Positions 18,718 to 41,425 of a stretch of DNA of 64,000 nt are shown piece after piece. Each line of letters opens with the position of its first letter. Position 1 is the stretch's first letter. The stretch lies in IMG/VR virus record IMGVR_UViG_3300034358_000044, positions 1 through 64,000 of that record. The stretch is one strand, 5' to 3'. This stretch comes from a virus. Position numbers and translations under genes: made by a program. The notes under the pieces are model-generated. The model saw only the letters and a list, made by a program, of their open reading frames with translations. It was not told where the DNA came from and did not search any database.

Positions 18718-19157
18718 GGGAGGTTCCTCAACTCCAGCTTCTTGGTGTTCTTGGTCACCCACTCGCTCTCGTTGAACCAGATGATCTTCGGAGCCGTGAC
18801 GATGCAGAACCCTCCACCGAACTCGTCAACTCTGGGCTTGCTGCAGGTGTCCGCCCAGCTCATGTGGAAGTAGCCCTTGGGGCAGAACTTCTTGAGATAG
18901 CTCTGCACGAAGTCGGCAATCTGCTCCACGTTGCCGGACTCTCCGCTGTCCCTGAACCAGACGTAGGGAGGCTGGATGATGTCTCCCAGGGTCTTCATGC
19001 CCGTGAGGCCGAAGACGGTCCAATCGTAGTCCGTCATGAGGTTGCCATCCTCATCCTCCGTAATCTTCAGGAGGTCGAGCTCCTTCTGGCACCACTCCGC
19101 TTCCCCGTGGTGTTGCAGCTTCAGTGCGAATGAGAACTGCCTGTAGTTGTTGGCCAC
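18714..19157 (-). CDS. Hypothetical protein
   Basis: 147 aa, codon bias. Confidence 0.8.
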   Translation of the reverse strand: MANNYRQFSFALKLQHHGEAEWCQKELDLLKITEDEDGNLMTDYDWTVFGLTGMKTLGDIIQPPYVWFRDSGESGNVEQIADFVQSYLKKFCPKGYFHMSWADTCSKPRVDEFGGGFCIVTAPKIIWFNESEWVTKNTKKLELRNLP

Positions 19158-19588
19158 TAGACCTCCACTTGCCGGCCGAATCGTTTGTTCCTGACAACGC
19201 TGGACACTTCCTTGGCCCTCTTCCTCTTCTTGAGAAGGAGGATCTCTTTGCGTCTCTCCTTCTCCGCGTCCATGTAGATCTTCCTGTTGTAGAGGTGGAA
19301 GAGCTCCTCCATGACGCGGAGGCCCGCCATCGTGATCTTGATGAGGGCGTACTTCTGGTCATTGACCTGCAGGTAGTCCATGACGTGGTTGATGCTGGGG
19401 GAGTGCGTGGTGTGCTTCTCCACTTCCGTCCTGCGGGGGCCGAGTCTCCTCTCGCAGAGCACCTCGTAGACGGCGTAGACGTCGAAGTCCTTGTGGAAGC
19501 GCCCATGGACCTCGTACCGGTCGAGCGCGACCTTGCTGACCTCTTTCCACCTGGTGGGGTATCGAGCCCTCTTCGCTTTCTTGGCCAT
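19157..19588 (-). CDS. Basic hypothetical protein ending in FGRQVEV
   Basis: 143 aa; carries the shared C-terminal motif. Confidence 0.8.
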   Translation of the reverse strand: MAKKAKRARYPTRWKEVSKVALDRYEVHGRFHKDFDVYAVYEVLCERRLGPRRTEVEKHTTHSPSINHVMDYLQVNDQKYALIKITMAGLRVMEELFHLYNRKIYMDAEKERRKEILLLKKRKRAKEVSSVVRNKRFGRQVEV

Positions 19589-34162: not shown

Positions 34163-35287
34163 TTACTCGTCGAGCTCGGTGGAGACGACGACCTTCGTCC
34201 GCACCTTGACCTCGCGGAAGACACGGATGTCCTCTCTCTTCACCCCGACCACATCGACCAGGCGGTCGATGCTCTGGGAGAGATGCTCCTTGCTGGTGAA
34301 CTCCGGCTGGCCGCAACCGGGCCAGTAGAGCAGCATCGGGAGCGGCGTGACAGGGCCGACCACCGGGGGAACATACACCGGCACAGCCTGTGCTTCCTGC
34401 GGAACCAGTTTCATCTCTTCCTCTTCCTCTTCACGCTCTTGGGTTGCGAGACGCTTTCCTCGGTAGGGGAGCCCGCTGAGCTCCCTCACCTGTTTCATGA
34501 TGTCGAGGACGATACGCTGGTCGCGGCTGATGCTGAAAACTGACTGCAGCACCATAGATGCGTCCCAGGAGTTGGCCTCAGGATTCTTCAAGAAGAAGTC
34601 CTCCAGCCAGTGGTCCCGAACCTTTCGACCCTCTTCGGAGTCCTGAGACCCCTGAGCAACCTGCTCTGTCGTCGTGGTGGGGAGTGTGAGGGTCGAGAGC
34701 CTCTCAAGCACCTGCTGCTTGTAGTCTCTCACCAACTCGACCACCTTTGACTGCGGAGCCTCTGCAGACTTCAGGGCCTGCTGCTTGGCTTCTTCGGCCC
34801 TCTCCTTGGCCCACTGCTCCTCCTTCGCCTTGCTGCGTTCCAACTGCTCAGCCTCCCGCTCTTCCCGCACCTTCTTGCGCCGCTCGCGCTCCTCCTGATC
34901 TTCTTGGAGTTTCTCTGCCCCACCCTGCTGAAGGGTGACCCGAAGTGGGGTGGGGGCGGCCATCAACTTCTCTGACACCTTCTCCAAGACCCCATCGGTT
35001 GCTGCCTTCGCCCATTCCTTGGATGAGACTCCGAGTTGGGCCAATATGGCCCCTTCCCGAACCAGCTCGTCACTCGGGAACCCTTGAAGGGCGGTGTACG
35101 CGCCCTTCTTCAGTTGACGGCGGATGGCGACGAGTTCGTCCTTGTTTGCCGGGATTCCGTCCTTCAACAGCTCTCGGATGAGGGCGTTGATTCCGAGGTT
35201 GGGGTGTTTGACGATGTAGGACCTTATCTGTTGGACACGTTTCTCGTTGTCCTTGGTGATGTTCGTCATGTACTTCCGTGATGACAT
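34163..35287 (-). CDS. Coiled-coil protein with HTH-like segments
   Basis: 374 aa, charged central helix; directly under a promoter motif. Confidence 0.8.
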   Translation of the reverse strand: MSSRKYMTNITKDNEKRVQQIRSYIVKHPNLGINALIRELLKDGIPANKDELVAIRRQLKKGAYTALQGFPSDELVREGAILAQLGVSSKEWAKAATDGVLEKVSEKLMAAPTPLRVTLQQGGAEKLQEDQEERERRKKVREEREAEQLERSKAKEEQWAKERAEEAKQQALKSAEAPQSKVVELVRDYKQQVLERLSTLTLPTTTTEQVAQGSQDSEEGRKVRDHWLEDFFLKNPEANSWDASMVLQSVFSISRDQRIVLDIMKQVRELSGLPYRGKRLATQEREEEEEEMKLVPQEAQAVPVYVPPVVGPVTPLPMLLYWPGCGQPEFTSKEHLSQSIDRLVDVVGVKREDIRVFREVKVRTKVVVSTELDE

Positions 35288-35317: not shown

Positions 35318-35349
35318 CAGCAGAGAGTCTGCTGTATCCTTATGCCGAA
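35318..35349 (-). promoter_or_regulatory. Promoter motif TTCGGCATAAGG (35338-35349) with leader hairpin (35318-35334)
   Basis: Exact motif; CAGCAGA-GAG-TCTGCTG. Confidence 0.75.
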
Positions 35350-35379: not shown

Positions 35380-35406
35380 GAGTCCCCCGGCTCTCGCCGG
35401 GGGCTC
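35380..35406 (-). terminator. Terminator with GAGA (GNRA) tetraloop
   Basis: GAGCCCCCGGC-GAGA-GCCGGGGGACTC on minus, after DUF3150-like gene. Confidence 0.75.
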
Positions 35407-35415
35407 TTGGTTCTC

Positions 35416-36489
35416 TTAGACCTCCAGGAATCGTGCGAAGCCCTTCGTCTTGGCGAGGGCAACCCGCCCAGCTTCTTCTGCAGTCTGCTCCAGTGCAAGG
35501 CTCCCGATGGAGTTCAGCAAGTTCTTGAACTCAGTCGTGGCGAAGCTGGTGCCATTGATGCTCTCCGAGGTGAGCTCGAAGTTGATGCTGCCGTCCGCAT
35601 TGCGACGGATGAAACGCTCTCGTGCATCATCCACCTGCTTCCTCCAGTCCGATGAACCGGTGAAATCGATGGCGTTGAAAGTCTCGAAGGCCTCGAAGAG
35701 AGGCCTCAGGTTCTTCGGGTTGAGCTTGCCCTGCTTCTCCAGCATGTTCTTCGCCTGGGCAGCAGCCTCCCCGAGTGCGCGGTGCATGTCGGAGGTGGCA
35801 GTCCTCACCCAGCTCTGCAGGTCCGCCCTGAGGGCTTCCCGTGCAGCCAGCAGCTCATCCTGTTGCAGGGTGTTGAGCTCTTCCAGCCCCTCCACTGCGC
35901 TCACCTTGAACATCCTCCAGGTGAAGCGGAACATCTGCGGGAGCTCATCCACGGGTGGGTAGAGCTTCCGGTGCTGCAGCTTCTGCATCTCCAGCCACTC
36001 CTCCAGCTCCTTCTGCCTCTCCGCCCTCTGGGAACTCACTGGGGTGCCTGGCCCCTTGGCCAGTTCCCGCATCATCAGGTCCTCGCTCTGGGAGTCGAGG
36101 ATGGAGAGCTGACGGGCCTTGAGCTCGGGGTAGTTGTCCACCAGGTCCTGCACTGCGCTGTTCCAGTCCCTCTGGAGGCTCCTCAGGCGCACCAGGAGGT
36201 CCGGCAGGGCACGGAAGTACACGAACCTGGCCCCGGACAGGGGGAATTCCAGGGAACGACCAGCCAGGGCCGTACGAGCCAGCCCCTCCAGCGTGACGAG
36301 CCGGCCCATCGCTTCCTTGGGGAGCAGCTTCTTGTGTCCCAGATAGATGGCGTCGTCGTTGATGCTGCCCTCCAACAACACGTCGTTCGACCTCAACTTC
36401 TTCTGGAAGGTAGGCTTGCCCACGAAGAGGTCGAACAGGGTCCCCTTGTCGAAGAGGATTTCAGTCGGTTGAGACTCTTGAGTCGTCAT
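35416..36489 (-). CDS. DUF3150-like protein
   Basis: KKLR..D, LG.K, DLVDNY, P..DE...F.F.W..F.V pattern; ends FARFLEV; start MTTQES with GGAG RBS. Confidence 0.65.
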   Translation of the reverse strand: MTTQESQPTEILFDKGTLFDLFVGKPTFQKKLRSNDVLLEGSINDDAIYLGHKKLLPKEAMGRLVTLEGLARTALAGRSLEFPLSGARFVYFRALPDLLVRLRSLQRDWNSAVQDLVDNYPELKARQLSILDSQSEDLMMRELAKGPGTPVSSQRAERQKELEEWLEMQKLQHRKLYPPVDELPQMFRFTWRMFKVSAVEGLEELNTLQQDELLAAREALRADLQSWVRTATSDMHRALGEAAAQAKNMLEKQGKLNPKNLRPLFEAFETFNAIDFTGSSDWRKQVDDARERFIRRNADGSINFELTSESINGTSFATTEFKNLLNSIGSLALEQTAEEAGRVALAKTKGFARFLEV

Positions 36490-36506
36490 TGATACTCCAA
36501 AGAGAA

Positions 36507-36539
36507 AGCCCCCACACAGCACGAGGCCGTGTGGGGGCT
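36507..36539 (-). terminator. Terminator/attenuator hairpin inside AAA operon
   Basis: AGCCCCCACAC/GTGTGGGGGCT 11-bp stem followed by TTTCTCTTT on minus. Confidence 0.7.
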
Positions 36540-36553
36540 GATGGGAGGTGGAC

Positions 36554-36763
36554 TCAGTTGCCGGTCTTCAGCTTGTCCTTGACGACTTCCTTGTCGAAGA
36601 ACTCCGGCTTCTTCTTCCTGCTGGTGACGTCGCCGCCGAGAGCCTCCTCGATGGACTTGGTGATGTCGGTGCAGACGGAGCCCTTGGCTCCATCGACCTC
36701 GATCTTCACGTCGGCCGCCCCGGGGGGAATCAACAGCGTGACGGTGTGGTAGTTGTTTGCCAT
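36554..36763 (-). CDS. DUF2997-family protein
   Basis: VKIEVDGAKGSVCTDITKSIEEALGG...KKPEFF. Confidence 0.8.
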   Translation of the reverse strand: MANNYHTVTLLIPPGAADVKIEVDGAKGSVCTDITKSIEEALGGDVTSRKKKPEFFDKEVVKDKLKTGN

Positions 36764-36765
36764 GG

Positions 36766-37191
36766 TCAGTACTCCACCACTCGGTTGAACTTGATCTTCG
36801 TGTCGGACTGCTTGACCTTCACCTTGCCTGGGCTGGTAGTCGATGCAGCGGAGGCGGGGACGGAAGGCTGAAGGTTGAACTCCTTCACCTCGAACGTTTC
36901 CCCGTTACGCCAGGACTTCAGAATCTCCGGCACATCACCTTGGACGGTGTCGGTGTGCTTGCAGCGACGCGACTGCCCCTTCTTCACGAAGCGCCAGCCG
37001 GGGCAGTTGCAGCTCACGGTGCCGTCCTGGTTGAGCTGTGCGACGTAGTCGAACATCACGCCGCCAGCCAGTGGGGTCTTGCTGGACTTGAAGCCCCACG
37101 TGAAGACCGGGGTCTTGTCCTCTGCCTTCTTCGGTGCCTTGATGCGTGCCATGTAGAGTTTCCTTCTTGGGCGTTGCAGTGGTTGGAACAT
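36766..37191 (-). CDS. SWIM zinc-finger protein
   Basis: VSCNCPGW...RRCKH; ends FNRVVEY; TGATG coupling. Confidence 0.8.
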   Translation of the reverse strand: MFQPLQRPRRKLYMARIKAPKKAEDKTPVFTWGFKSSKTPLAGGVMFDYVAQLNQDGTVSCNCPGWRFVKKGQSRRCKHTDTVQGDVPEILKSWRNGETFEVKEFNLQPSVPASAASTTSPGKVKVKQSDTKIKFNRVVEY

Positions 37192-37607
37192 CAGCCGTAC
37201 TTGGTCGCCACGAGCTTGACGACGCCGTCCTTCATCACTTCGCGCTTCAGGGTGTAGCCCTGGGCCTTCAACTTCTTCGAGGCCACGCGCTCGGCGTAGT
37301 CCTGGGCGATGCGGTTCTGGCTCTCGACGGGGAAGTCGGTCGGGTCGGCGTACAGGTTGTACGTCCCGTCCTCCTGCCTCTCGTAGCCGATGTCGTTCCA
37401 GCCGTAGTTGTGGAACGTCTTCTTCACGGCGTCCTTGCGCACGACGATATGCGCCTTCTTGGCGGCCGACCGGTCGTAGCCCTCCATCCTGACAGGGGTG
37501 TCGTGGACTTCGACCGAGTTCTCCCCGAAGACCTGCCTCAGGGAGTTGATGAGCTCGGTCTCGGACTTCTGGAGGAACTTCGGCTTCAATTCAGTGAGGT
37601 GTGACAT
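37191..37607 (-). CDS. DUF1257 (Ycf35)-family protein
   Basis: MSHLTE...NDIGYERQEDGTYNLYAD...QDYA...QGY...KLV. Confidence 0.8.
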   Translation of the reverse strand: MSHLTELKPKFLQKSETELINSLRQVFGENSVEVHDTPVRMEGYDRSAAKKAHIVVRKDAVKKTFHNYGWNDIGYERQEDGTYNLYADPTDFPVESQNRIAQDYAERVASKKLKAQGYTLKREVMKDGVVKLVATKYG

Positions 37608-37648
37608 GGGTTCTCCTTGAGGCGAGTTGTACCAGACGGGTCTGACAT

Positions 37649-39283
37649 TCAGACCTGAACGGAGCGTCCAGAGGCGGAAGGCGGAGGGACGGCCACCTCG
37701 GGGGTGTTGGCCGGGCGGGTACGGCGCTCGCACCAACGACGGATGGCGTCGATCTTCTCCTTCATCGTCTTGGACAGGGGGTTGGTGCTGTCGAAGCTGT
37801 GCTGCAGGTCGAAGTCGTTGAGGTCCTTCTCCCCATCGAATGCTGCGTACATGGCGTCGTTGATGGCTGCCTCGATCTCTGCCCCGGTGAAGCCTTCGGT
37901 GGTCTCCCCAGCGAAGTGGTCGAGCTTGATCTTCCCGCTCATGATGAGGTGACCACGGTTCTTCTTCTTGATGTGAATCTCCAGGATTTCCTTCCGCTCA
38001 GCCTGGTTGGGGAGATCCACCGAGAACATCTCGTCGAAGCGGCCCTTCCGAAGGAGCTCGGGAGGGATGCCGGTGACGTCGTTGGCCGTGGCGAACACGA
38101 ACACCGGGCTCTTCTTCTCCTGCATCCAGGTGAGGATGGTACCCATCACGCGGGCTCCCACACCAGAGTCCAGGTTGCCTGCCCCGCTGCCGGCAGTGCC
38201 CTTCTCGATTTCGTCCACCCACAGGATGCAGGGGCTGATGGTCTCTGCCACCTGCAGGGCGTTGCGGATGTTGGCCTCTGACTGCCCCACCAGGCTCCCG
38301 AACATCTTGCCCATGTCGAGGCGCAGGAGGGGCATGGCGAGCTCACTGGAGGCAGCCTTGGCCGTCAGGGACTTCCCGCAGCCGGGAGGCCCCACGAGGA
38401 TGATGCCCTTCGGAGCAGGCAGCCCGAAGTCCTTGGCCTTCTGGGTGAAGGCGTTCTTCCGCTTGGAGAGCCAGCTCTTGAGGTTCTGCAGGCCTCCGAC
38501 GTCCTTCAGGCCCGAGGGGGAGACCGGGATGTACTCCAGCAACCCCGTCTTCTTCAGCGCCTGGCACTTCTCCTCCATGACGATGCGGGGGTCCCAGATG
38601 TCCTTGCTCTTGGCGATGCGAGGACGGATGAGGGAGAGCGACAGTGCGTTCTCAGCCTCGCTGGTGGTGAGACCCAAGGCCGCCTCGATGAGCTCCTCCT
38701 TGCGCCCCTCGGAGGGCACCATGTCCCCCTTGAGCTGAGAGCCCTCGATGATGCCGTTCAGCACGTCGTGGAGCTGCTGCTCTCCGGGGAGCTGCGTCTC
38801 CACCAGGGCGAACTCCTTCTCCAGCTCCATCGGCAGCTTGGAGACCGGGGTGAGGACGACCAGCATGCGCTGCGTCATCTTGTACTCCGGGATGATGTCC
38901 AGCAGCAGCGACTGCACCAACGGGTCATCCAGGAAGTGGTGGAAGAGGCGCAGCACCACGATGGACTTGCTGGGGATGACGTACCGCTTGTCCTTCGCCT
39001 TCGGATCCACCACGCCGGTGAGGGCGTTGAGCAACCCAGGTGGGAGCTCGGTGTCCGCGATGGGGTCCTTCTTGCCGTCCTCCAGGATGCCCTTGCCGAA
39101 GGTCCAGGTGAACAGCTTGCGGTCCAGCTCGTGGGCCGCAGACTGAATCTCCTTCTGGCTCCTCATGTCCTCGGCGGACACGAGGTAGAGCGCGGCGTAG
39201 CCGGCCCGAGCCTTCTCGAAGATGGTCCTGGCGGTTGCTGGCTTCTCTTCCTTCTTCAGCGTGTCCTTCTTCTCATCAGCCAT
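37649..39283 (-). CDS. Ycf46-like AAA+ ATPase (degenerate N-terminal AAA + active AAA)
   Basis: VGGLQNLKSWL, GLPAPKGIILVGPPGCGKS, ILWVDEIEK, ATAN...PPELLRKGRFDE. Confidence 0.9.
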   Translation of the reverse strand: MADEKKDTLKKEEKPATARTIFEKARAGYAALYLVSAEDMRSQKEIQSAAHELDRKLFTWTFGKGILEDGKKDPIADTELPPGLLNALTGVVDPKAKDKRYVIPSKSIVVLRLFHHFLDDPLVQSLLLDIIPEYKMTQRMLVVLTPVSKLPMELEKEFALVETQLPGEQQLHDVLNGIIEGSQLKGDMVPSEGRKEELIEAALGLTTSEAENALSLSLIRPRIAKSKDIWDPRIVMEEKCQALKKTGLLEYIPVSPSGLKDVGGLQNLKSWLSKRKNAFTQKAKDFGLPAPKGIILVGPPGCGKSLTAKAASSELAMPLLRLDMGKMFGSLVGQSEANIRNALQVAETISPCILWVDEIEKGTAGSGAGNLDSGVGARVMGTILTWMQEKKSPVFVFATANDVTGIPPELLRKGRFDEMFSVDLPNQAERKEILEIHIKKKNRGHLIMSGKIKLDHFAGETTEGFTGAEIEAAINDAMYAAFDGEKDLNDFDLQHSFDSTNPLSKTMKEKIDAIRRWCERRTRPANTPEVAVPPPSASGRSVQV

Positions 39284-39611
39284 TGCGGAGCTCCCAGAAG
39301 AATCTGACTTCGAGTTCCAACGCTTCCTTGCGGGTCTTGAAGAAGTGCAAGGCGTCGGTGCGGTTGCAGTAGAAAGCAGTGATGTTACCCTTCGTCTCGG
39401 ACCTGATGGCGAGAGTGCGGTCCTTCACTGACCGAACGACCCAGCCCTGCATGCCCTCCCAATCGGACCACTCCTCCCACTCCACGTCAGAGACGCGGCA
39501 AGAGCGAGTCACATCGGCTCCGATGGTTTCAGCGAACGCCTCGATGCCCTCTTGGTAGATGGTCTCGATGGTTCCGTCCGCCCCTATCTTCAGGTCGAAT
39601 TCTTGTTTCAT
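39276..39611 (-). CDS. Hypothetical protein (I..DGT..TIY.E...R.S.VE family) heading the AAA module
   Basis: Pattern recalled from proteins neighbouring DUF1257/DUF2997/AAA in bacteria. Confidence 0.7.
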   Translation of the reverse strand: MKQEFDLKIGADGTIETIYQEGIEAFAETIGADVTRSCRVSDVEWEEWSDWEGMQGWVVRSVKDRTLAIRSETKGNITAFYCNRTDALHFFKTRKEALELEVRFFWELRNG

Positions 39612-39707: not shown

Positions 39708-40292
39708 CTACTTCCAGGTGATGTGGGGGAGCTCGATGCTGGGCTTTCCGGCGTAGCCGACTTCCCAGATGAAGCATCCGTACTCGTTGGTGTCATTGAC
39801 AGCCTTTGCTCCTTTCACGAAGCTGGGACGTCCCACAATGGGGATGACCCATCTGAGCTGGCCCTGGTTCCAGAGGGTCGCAGCTCGGGCCTTGCCACCG
39901 AAGAAGTTCATCTTCAAGAGGAAGGCTATGTGACTGCCGGGGAGAAGATACTCAAGTCCAGCGAAGATGTGATCCTCAGCCAGACTGAATGGTGGGTTGC
40001 CTACTACGAGGGTCGGCCCCTCCACCTTGTACTGCTTGACCCATTGGACCCAATCGGCCTTGTGGACGTCATCAGCGCCAGCTTTATGGAGCGCCTTCAC
40101 ACTTGGATGAGTGTCGATGGCGATGAGCGGAGGTAAGCTCCAGAGCTGCCTCAAGGGTCGTACGAAGACCCCAGTTCCGGCAGACGGCTCAATGACTTCG
40201 AAGTGCCCTATGGGCAACAGCTCCGAGAGTCTCTTGCAGATGGCTTCAGCTAGTGCTGGTGGCGTCGGGTAGTTGTCAACCCGTGCGCCCAT
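39708..40292 (-). CDS. DNA N6-adenine methyltransferase
   Basis: DNYPTP, VIEPSAGTGVF (SAM motif), VVGNPPF (catalytic). Confidence 0.88.
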   Translation of the reverse strand: MGARVDNYPTPPALAEAICKRLSELLPIGHFEVIEPSAGTGVFVRPLRQLWSLPPLIAIDTHPSVKALHKAGADDVHKADWVQWVKQYKVEGPTLVVGNPPFSLAEDHIFAGLEYLLPGSHIAFLLKMNFFGGKARAATLWNQGQLRWVIPIVGRPSFVKGAKAVNDTNEYGCFIWEVGYAGKPSIELPHITWK

Positions 40293-40725
40293 TTCTACCT
40301 CTTGTCATCTTTGGTGGTGGGGGTGGGATTACCAACCCGGTGGACTTCTTTGCAGGCCTGCGACGCATCGAAACTGCCTTCTCGAACCAGCGAATCTTCC
40401 TGGCCCGGATGTCGATGACCTTGAAGGACGAGCGCCAGTCAGGGCACTGGATGTCGTACCTGCGGTCTGGGCACATCTCGTGGGCGATGACGAACTCGTC
40501 CTTGATGGCTACCCGGCTGTCATCGGTGTTGTCGTCCTTGTAGTAGACGAGAGTCGATGCCCCGCACCCGTGGCAGCAGAGCTCGATCTTCCCGTAGCCC
40601 AGCTCCTCGTACTCCGTGGTGTCCGTCATGTAGTGCAGGTGAATCTGGGGTGCCTTGGTGATGGTGTCGATGGCGAACAGGCCCAGGTGTGACGTGTGTC
40701 CGCAGCCTAGAACGGTCGCGCTCAT
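40276..40725 (-). CDS. Cys-rich hypothetical protein
   Basis: 149 aa, AGGAG RBS. Confidence 0.75.
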   Translation of the reverse strand: MSATVLGCGHTSHLGLFAIDTITKAPQIHLHYMTDTTEYEELGYGKIELCCHGCGASTLVYYKDDNTDDSRVAIKDEFVIAHEMCPDRRYDIQCPDWRSSFKVIDIRARKIRWFEKAVSMRRRPAKKSTGLVIPPPPPKMTRGRNGRTG

Positions 40726-40753: not shown

Positions 40754-41425
40754 TCATTCTGGCTCATCATCCCCTATTTCGACGTGTCTGCGAAACGTAA
40801 TCGTGTCGTTCTTCTTGGGTGATTCTTTCGGTGGAGGAGGCTTCCGTACAGGTCGTACAGGCTCTCCCCTCCATACTGGAGCGGGTCGGTTCGCCTTGTC
40901 CTGCAGGAGGCCCATCTCGATCTCCATGGCGAGGTTCCAAATCTCTCGTGGGAGGGAAAGTTGGTAGACCCCTTTGCCAGTCTGCACAGCTTTCTGCTGG
41001 GCATAGCGGACACACGACGCGGTCCCTCCGCTGTTCTGACCGTCCCACACCGCAAGAAGAGCATCGCTGTGGTCTACCATCCATGCGTTGCGGTCGTGGA
41101 GAAGCTGGGGGCTGTAGTATCCCTCACTGAGAGTCACGACGCTGGCTGCCTCTTGCAGGAGCATGTTGTAGTGCTGTCTGGATCTCATGGGCCACTTCGA
41201 GTCGTAGCCCTCGAAAGGAACGATGGCGTCGAATGGTATCTTCATCCTGATGCAGAGGGAGGCGACCCATTGGTCAGTGCCAAGAGCCATTCCAGTGAGT
41301 ACCTTGTCGATCTTCAGGACACCGAAGGACTCCTCCAGCTTCTGCATCACCGCGTTGTAGATAGGATTCGGAATGTTGTAGCCACCGAGCCGAGAAGGCC
41401 GATGGCCGGTGACTGCGAGGATCAT
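40754..41425 (-). CDS. YspA/DUF1273-like SLOG-family protein
   Basis: AVTGHRP, GMALGTDQW, RNAWMVDHSDALLAVWDG..SGGT. Confidence 0.88.
   Translation of the reverse strand: MILAVTGHRPSRLGGYNIPNPIYNAVMQKLEESFGVLKIDKVLTGMALGTDQWVASLCIRMKIPFDAIVPFEGYDSKWPMRSRQHYNMLLQEAASVVTLSEGYYSPQLLHDRNAWMVDHSDALLAVWDGQNSGGTASCVRYAQQKAVQTGKGVYQLSLPREIWNLAMEIEMGLLQDKANRPAPVWRGEPVRPVRKPPPPKESPKKNDTITFRRHVEIGDDEPE

Follow-up and report, generated by a model that had tools for sequence, protein, structure and literature searches.

What might a phage do with a substrate-threading ATPase encoded among small companion genes, and why do unrelated proteins of that phage end in the same short peptide? AAA+ unfoldases whose partners are addressed by peptides have a central place in protein quality control. 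To our knowledge, no such system has been reported with one co-evolving C-terminal address common to the ATPase and to a varying assortment of unrelated phage proteins. The locus considered here comes from an uncultured 196-kb phage and lies within a window of 64,000 nt, the whole stretch of DNA that was analysed.

Layout of the locus

The module comprises six co-oriented minus-strand genes at 35416–39611. These genes, their two hairpins and two further genes that bear on the argument are as follows.

40754–41425, minus strand: YpsA/SLOG (DprA-like) protein, 223 aa (PF06908, 8.6e-23); tail R-H-V-E-I, then an acidic extension
39276–39611, minus strand: g1, 111 aa; without a Pfam family and without the tail
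37649–39283, minus strand: AAA+ ATPase, 544 aa; N-domain of about 250 aa, classical-clade AAA domain and lid; tail G-R-S-V-Q-V
37191–37607, minus strand: DUF1257 (Ycf35-type) protein, 138 aa; N-terminus Met-Ser-His; without the tail
36766–37191, minus strand: SWIM-type zinc-finger protein, 141 aa; tail F-N-R-V-V-E-Y
36554–36763, minus strand: DUF2997 protein, 69 aa; without the tail
36507–36539, minus strand: hairpin between the DUF2997 and DUF3150 genes; 14-bp stem, U-rich tail
35416–36489, minus strand: DUF3150 protein, 357 aa; beta region at the N-terminus, long helical bundles; tail F-A-R-F-L-E-V
35384–35403, minus strand: hairpin after the DUF3150 gene; 8-bp all-GC stem, GAGA loop; z −3.9
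19157–19588, minus strand: orphan protein, 143 aa; tail F-G-R-Q-V-E-V

An earlier reading, made from the sequence only, had described six co-oriented and tightly spaced genes, and the gene calls bear this out: the stop of g1 overlaps the ATPase start by 8 nt, the DUF1257 and SWIM genes overlap by 1 nt, and 2 nt separate the SWIM gene from the DUF2997 gene. A gap of 64 nt follows the DUF2997 gene, and the true start of the DUF3150 gene is the ATG at 36489, with GGAG ahead of it. The hairpin in this gap resembles an intrinsic terminator; the 67-nt segment that contains it has a folding energy of −32.8 kcal/mol (z −4.2). The hairpin had been proposed as an attenuator; it is present, but that role is doubtful because in the related phages no hairpin separates the DUF2997 and DUF3150 genes, which overlap or lie end to end. 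The GNRA terminator proposed downstream of the DUF3150 gene was found as the GAGA-loop hairpin, which likely marks the end of the operon.

The ATPase and its companions

The ATPase matches PF00004 (Pfam, E 6.8e-29) and phrog_8638 (PHROG, 7.6e-134). Walker A (residues 298–305), Walker B (353–358), the pore loop K-M-F-G (326–329) and sensor 1 are intact, as are the arginine fingers of the second region of homology, R-x-G-R-F-D at 412–417. The closest solved structures are those of the p97/Cdc48 D2 domain (PDB, E 1e-57). Judged by its sequence, the protein is a member of the classical unfoldase clade, and its initial placement among Cdc48/FtsH-like enzymes with intact Walker and SRH motifs thus holds. 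The N-domain has no Pfam match, and NCBIfam and PADLOC return generic AAA matches only (CDC48, FtsH, IetA) and none for the other five proteins. JGI labels homologues 'SpoVK/Ycf46/Vps4 family', a generic COG name; kinship to Ycf46 itself is presumed. The centre of the module would be an AAA+ ATPase of the Cdc48/FtsH clade, working as a hexamer that threads its substrates.

The family assignments proposed for the companions stood against Pfam for three proteins, as did that of the AAA domain. DUF1257 scores 35.0 bits against PF06868 (gathering cut-off 22.2), DUF2997 46.6 bits against PF11211 (24.1) and DUF3150 27.3 bits against PF11348 (24.9), the last in an N-terminal alignment only, at profile positions 5–111 of 257. 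The SWIM protein falls below the PF04434 cut-off (12.9 bits vs. 19.6, E 0.085), but residues 61–79 carry the signature C-x-C-x14-C-x-H, whose four ligands are invariant in six orthologues (seven aligned sequences). Its assignment as a probable SWIM protein rests on this C-x-C-x(n)-C-x-H signature and not on Pfam.

Natural fusions of DUF1257 with DUF2997 occur in L007, and about 14 other clusters contain them as well. The predicted fold of one such fusion is a single TBP/KA1-like unit (pLDDT 94, pTM 0.87), for which fold searches yield generic matches only; DUF1257 and DUF2997 may be the two halves of one small alpha/beta unit of this type. The DUF3150 protein has 143 homologues, most of them with a precomputed PF11348 assignment, and its AF2 model (pLDDT 88.7) resembles only other phage DUF3150 models, including a named DUF3150 protein among the Foldseek matches in BFVD (E 5.7e-8). 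Foldseek gave no PDB match for this model, and VIA gave generic four-helix bundles only (best Z 8.1, residues 224–357). Model confidence is low in the tail (mean of the last block 66), consistent with a free peptide. For g1, a search of the ESM Atlas returned unnamed viral clusters only. In the literature, we found no paper assigning a function to DUF1257, DUF2997 or DUF3150.

The sequence-only reading had expected these genes to co-occur elsewhere, and a check of phage neighbourhoods confirmed it. The six-gene order is kept in four related phages of 150–210 kb at 37–52% identity (L014/L019, L016, L017 and L018); in G005 an insertion splits it. Orthologues of g1 lie directly upstream of the ATPase gene, or near it, in all four clade genomes. 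The AAA/DUF1257/DUF2997 core is also found in Rhizobium phage RHph_I4 and Rhodobacter phage RcKickapoo, with DUF1257 and DUF2997 1–1.5 kb downstream of the ATPase. The ATPases of these two phages and of Mycobacterium phage Corndog (phrog_8638) are homologous to ours over their full length (31–35% identity, 93–96% coverage), but all three phages lack SWIM, DUF3150 and g1, and in Corndog the PF06868 profile finds no DUF1257. At the DNA level the phage collection yielded nothing beyond 130-bp matches to ATPase genes of mycobacteriophages, and tblastn of the collection with DUF3150 gave no match; by hhalign, the DUF3150 profile is unrelated to the unnamed ATPase-neighbour proteins of Corndog and RHph_I4. 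An ancient core of ATPase and DUF1257/DUF2997 unit may later have gained g1, the SWIM zinc-finger protein and the helical DUF3150 protein in the clade of ~200-kb phages.

A shared C-terminal tail

The tail R-x-[IVL]-[EDQ]-[VLIA] ends the ATPase, the SWIM protein and the DUF3150 protein. The shared C-terminal tag noticed at the outset is therefore present, and it extends past the six genes to the YpsA/SLOG protein, encoded 1.1 kb upstream of the module, and to the orphan, encoded some 16 kb away and without a homologue in five related phage records. The initial picture of the six genes as a complete machine did not survive this. The same four families are tailed in all four genomes, together with orphans particular to each; YpsA/SLOG orthologues carry the tail in four of four and are linked to the module in three. 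In G005, eight tailed genes with nearly one spelling are spread over 130 kb, and a search of viral contigs with the back-translated tail pattern matched G005 alone. Neither a regular expression nor BLOSUM scoring against each ATPase tail detected tail sharing in RHph_I4, RcKickapoo or Corndog; the tail therefore does not belong to the core as such.

Across four genomes, the tail ends 18 of 900 predicted genes and 6 of 5041 non-gene ORFs, a 17-fold enrichment (Fisher p 8e-11). The ATPase has 114 homologues and its tail is present in 73 of 99; the arginine of the DUF3150 tail is invariant in 36 proteins. Co-variation between the tails of the two proteins is significant over 26 contig-matched pairs (permutation p 0.0005), in a test that matched proteins through the equal length of their contigs and made no correction for phylogeny. 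Short motifs are able to recur, and fold searches point to no functional link, as would be expected if the genes were mere neighbours and the tail a structural end-cap, arisen by chance or small-scale recombination and without a shared partner. We consider this very unlikely in view of the enrichment, of the conservation of the tail over about 100 homologues, of its co-variation, and of a six-gene synteny that persists despite low identity.

The best reading, to which we give a probability of roughly one half, is an unfoldase with partners or clients that dock on one site via the tail. The flexible tail would most likely be a docking peptide that inserts in one shared pocket, for which the candidates are g1 and the DUF1257/DUF2997 unit, both untagged, and the N-domain of the ATPase; docking would bring the ATPase together with its partners or clients in one assembly. 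The genes with their domains, synteny and fusions are observed, as are the enrichment, conservation and co-variation of the tail; that the tail docks, which protein receives it and that particular substrates are unfolded is what we infer. That the module might work early or midway through infection, to dismantle host complexes or to organise DNA-metabolism enzymes, as initially suggested, is conjecture, as is an interaction among its products.

The tail could instead be a C-terminal degron: tagged proteins, the partners of the ATPase among them, would be delivered to a protease of the host, or to the phage's own ATPase, and removed at a set time in infection. The tail lies at the very C-terminus and requires a free end, it has been copied onto unrelated small proteins, and the threading pore loop of the ATPase is intact. 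Yet the ATPase's own tail is strongly conserved, and the machine would thus be its own substrate. Moreover, Pfam and PHROG annotation reveals no protease, proteasome-like or ClpP-like gene in the operon, and the tail, with its charged R and E/D positions, does not resemble the C-terminal degrons of ClpX and Tsp, which are non-polar. On balance a degron appears improbable.

We also doubt that the tail binds a host hub (such as a clamp, RNA polymerase, or the N-domain of a chaperone or protease), with the tagged proteins acting separately and forming no complex with the ATPase. The dispersal of tagged genes, over eight loci in G005, would suit such a hub, as would an operon without an evident receptor. 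In all four genomes, however, the core tagged set clusters physically with the ATPase, and the spelling of the tail drifts between phages while co-varying within each, a pattern that a co-evolving, phage-encoded receptor fits better than a conserved host pocket. A signal for localisation or for loading into the virion, which would make the module cargo and not machine, is hard to credit: the tagged genes lie in a DNA-metabolism block with ligase, ribonucleotide reductase and methyltransferase as neighbours, not among structural genes.

Docking on one site also admits a bolder form, which we put forward tentatively: the tail may be a phage-private address code, with g1 or DUF1257/DUF2997 as its receptor, co-rewritten in each lineage and appended to proteins to recruit them as clients. 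Six residues would then suffice to plug any protein into the receptor of the AAA+ module. If true, this would be a tag-and-machine system without known ubiquitin-like or ssrA-like precedent in phages, and it would open a first way into the mechanism of the Ycf46/Ycf35/DUF2997 set in cyanobacteria and plastids. The tail, if portable, would also offer a compact protein-recruiting tool.

Relation to known systems

The phage ATPase shares Walker A and B, pore loop 1, sensor 1 and the arginine fingers with Cdc48/p97 D2 and FtsH; what sets it apart is its lone AAA domain, an N-domain of another kind and the lack of a protease domain.

Ycf46 (AAA+), Ycf35 (DUF1257) and DUF2997 are regarded as a gene set of cyanobacteria and plastids, for which our literature search likewise yielded no known mechanism. 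In cyanobacteria, a cluster DUF2997-ycf35-fed7 has been documented (PMC4284462), and the PF06868 profile matches a Synechococcus control genome. The phage module has the Pfam families DUF1257 and DUF2997 in common with this set; in contrast to it, the phage version lacks the ferredoxin and has gained g1, SWIM, DUF3150 and the shared tail. The DUF1257/DUF2997 pair occurs widely, in phages as well as in cyanobacteria and plastids, and a phage version whose partners are visible gives experiments a direct way in.

For the tail, the nearest parallels are the C-terminal peptide of SspB, which tethers cargo to ClpX, and the HbYX tails that dock ATPases on the proteasome. The likeness to SspB and to HbYX/GQYL tails is that of a short, flexible C-terminal peptide on unrelated proteins that serve one AAA+ machine. 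The phage tails fall outside the HbYX/GQYL class: they end in [EDQ]-[VLIA] and lack the penultimate Tyr, with the arginine and acidic positions conserved instead, and their operon encodes no proteasome or ClpP. A simple adaptor model would not lead one to expect an ATPase that bears its own 'address'. In the phage module, unlike in the SspB and HbYX systems, the ATPase and its partners bear the same tail.

Gene layout and domain content

The window covers the opening 64 kb of its parent IMG/VR record, which measures 195.7 kb and is rated complete by CheckV. The minus-strand block at 34–47 kb holds a DNA methyltransferase, a YpsA/SLOG (DprA-like) protein, an ATP-dependent DNA ligase, a class II ribonucleotide reductase and the module itself, whose six co-oriented genes, as described in the sequence-only reading, span 35416–39611:

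39276–39611, minus strand, g1, 111 aa, its stop overlapping the ATPase start by 8 nt
37649–39283, minus strand, AAA+ ATPase, 544 aa
37191–37607, minus strand, DUF1257 protein
36766–37191, minus strand, SWIM-like protein
36554–36763, minus strand, DUF2997 protein
35416–36489, minus strand, DUF3150 protein, 64 nt from DUF2997; true start at the ATG at 36489, preceded by GGAG

The AAA, DUF1257, DUF2997 and DUF3150 assignments each exceed their own Pfam cut-off. The ATPase matches phrog_8638 over its full length (PHROGs, 7.6e-134) and carries both Walker motifs (A and B), sensor 1, an arginine-finger motif and a pore loop of sequence K-M-F-G; its closest solved structures are p97/Cdc48 D2 domains (~1e-57). 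The SWIM assignment falls short in Pfam (12.9 bits vs. a cut-off of 19.6) and holds in its C-x-C-x14-C-x-H signature, the four ligands of which are all invariant among orthologues. PADLOC and NCBIfam searches of the module gave no lead on its biological role.

Both previously proposed hairpins are present, one between DUF2997 and DUF3150 (14-bp stem, U-rich tail, z −4.2) and one 3' of DUF3150 (8-bp GC stem, GAGA loop, z −3.9). The case for the former as an attenuator is weak, since DUF2997 and DUF3150 overlap or abut in relatives and the hairpin is not conserved there; we therefore take it for a local feature, either a partial terminator or an RNA-stability element, that does not define the module. 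The motif TTCGGCATAAGG (35338–35349, minus strand) sits past the terminator hairpin of DUF3150 and ahead of the following gene (34163–35287), which therefore looks like a transcription unit separate from the operon.

Conservation among phages and the DUF1257–DUF2997 unit

Full-length ATPase homologues are found in phages of Rhizobium, Rhodobacter and Aeromonas and in cluster-O mycobacteriophages. The expected co-occurrence in other genomes was recovered both for the core, in RHph_I4 (Rhizobium) and RcKickapoo (Rhodobacter), where DUF1257 and DUF2997 lie 1–1.5 kb downstream of the ATPase, and for the six-gene order, which is kept in four IMG/VR phages of 150–200 kb at 37–52% identity (loci L014/L019, L016, L017 and L018). 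In a fifth phage, G005 (209 kb), the order g1-ATPase-DUF1257-SWIM-DUF2997 is intact and DUF3150 follows 5.6 kb further on; the 5.6-kb insertion carries genes for proteins of 851 aa and 393 aa. DUF3150 homologues number 143, many of them on contigs of 100–205 kb. The confident DUF3150 model (pLDDT 88.7) begins with a small beta region and continues in long helical bundles, and structure searches found likeness only to other unannotated phage DUF3150 models.

The SWIM protein of G005 has 661 aa, with a 500-aa N-terminal extension that matches no Pfam family (L050:3762–5747, equivalent to G005 136762–138747; also L020:188–2173). The g1 orthologues of two relatives (L016:3413–3967 and L017:2954–3685) bear a Cys-rich C-terminal extension of ~60 aa and are placed 1.2 kb upstream of the ATPase, without overlap. 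Mobile insertions seem to target the ATPase gene, as one related copy (L015:5893–8944) is split into two ORFs ~900 bp apart and an 894-aa homologue (P0379) carries the intein domain PF14890.

DUF1257 and DUF2997 are fused as one 190-aa protein in a related phage (L007:7473–8042), and a full-library search returned ~14 more clusters of such fusions among 719 relatives. The fusion is modelled as one compact alpha/beta body (pLDDT 94.2, pTM 0.87), and the two proteins are thus predicted to form one unit. By structure searches the model falls in the TBP/KA1-like class, with matches to the spermine synthase N-domain (Z 10.2), KA1 domains (Z 8–9), the AP-2 appendage platform (Z 8.1) and RnlA (Z 7.2–7.5 in VIA; top Foldseek rows, E 2e-3). 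These relatives are binding or regulatory scaffolds and therefore imply no enzyme. In fold, DUF1257 is similar to AdoMetDC-like proteins and to the N-domains of spermine synthases. Its N-terminal Met-Ser-His (37599–37607) is conserved at each of M1, S2 and H3 in at least 90% of 62 diverse aligned sequences, and a free N-terminus of this kind, with His as its third residue, might bind a metal or undergo processing.

The shared C-terminal tail

The C-terminal tag noticed in the sequence-only reading is indeed shared: the SWIM, DUF3150 and ATPase proteins end in R-x-[IVL]-[EDQ]-[VLIA], a pattern often preceded by Phe/Tyr or Gly. Across the whole parent genome the regular expression matches only 6 of 1310 six-frame ORFs, three of them in the module and a fourth being an orphan 143-aa gene (19157–19588); in the YpsA/SLOG protein the motif is followed by an acidic extension. 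Three related genomes were fetched in full and their genes called by codon usage. Over the four genomes, 18 of 900 genes carry the tail vs. 6 of 5041 non-gene ORFs (Fisher p 8e-11), with the ATPase, SWIM, DUF3150 and SLOG families tailed in all four and the remaining carriers being genome-specific orphans. Eight genes of G005 end in nearly one spelling, and its ATPase ends in T-R-V-V-E-S, a near-variant missed by the regular expression. All 36 aligned DUF3150 proteins have the tail arginine, and 73 of the 99 full-length ATPase homologues end in G-R-x-[VIL]-[EDQ]-[AV], most others being near-variants.

The 224-aa Cys-rich protein adjoining the SLOG gene in G005 is tailed (L049:17554–18228, equivalent to G005 131554–132228), unlike its positional counterpart in the window (40276–40725), a difference that points to gain and loss of tails protein by protein. 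The 374-aa product of 34163–35287 (minus strand), directly downstream of the operon, matches no family in Pfam or PHROGs; its last residues, a hydrophobic run and then E-L-D-E, are loosely tail-like and possibly a degenerate copy.

Among 26 ATPase/DUF3150 pairs, inferred from contigs of identical size, agreement at the two variable positions of the tail exceeds that seen when the pairs are shuffled (p 0.0005, by a statistic that ignores phylogeny). In its behaviour the tail resembles a docking peptide that co-evolves; alternatively, it may be a degron, bind a host hub or act as a localisation signal. As a docking peptide, it would bring the ATPase and its partners, along with a variable set of small proteins, to a single site, the module as a whole being a putative unfoldase with accessory proteins. 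g1, DUF1257 and DUF2997 are never tailed, and tail sharing was sought and not found in RHph_I4, RcKickapoo and Corndog (Mycobacterium), which have core ATPase genes only and also lack g1, SWIM and DUF3150. The receptor may be one of the untagged module proteins, with g1 as the foremost candidate: across the seven genomes examined, g1 and the tail have matching distributions. Either the DUF1257/DUF2997 unit or the N-domain of the ATPase could also fill this role. The module may serve in host takeover, anti-defence or replication-factory assembly.

Comparison with known systems

Papers mentioning DUF1257, DUF2997, DUF3150, Ycf46 or Ycf35 give no mechanism. Tethering or docking tails are used by ClpX-SspB and by proteasomal ATPases, and these are nearest in concept to the phage tail, although sequence and partners differ. 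Unlike in those systems, the ATPase of the phage module itself shares the tail of its partners.
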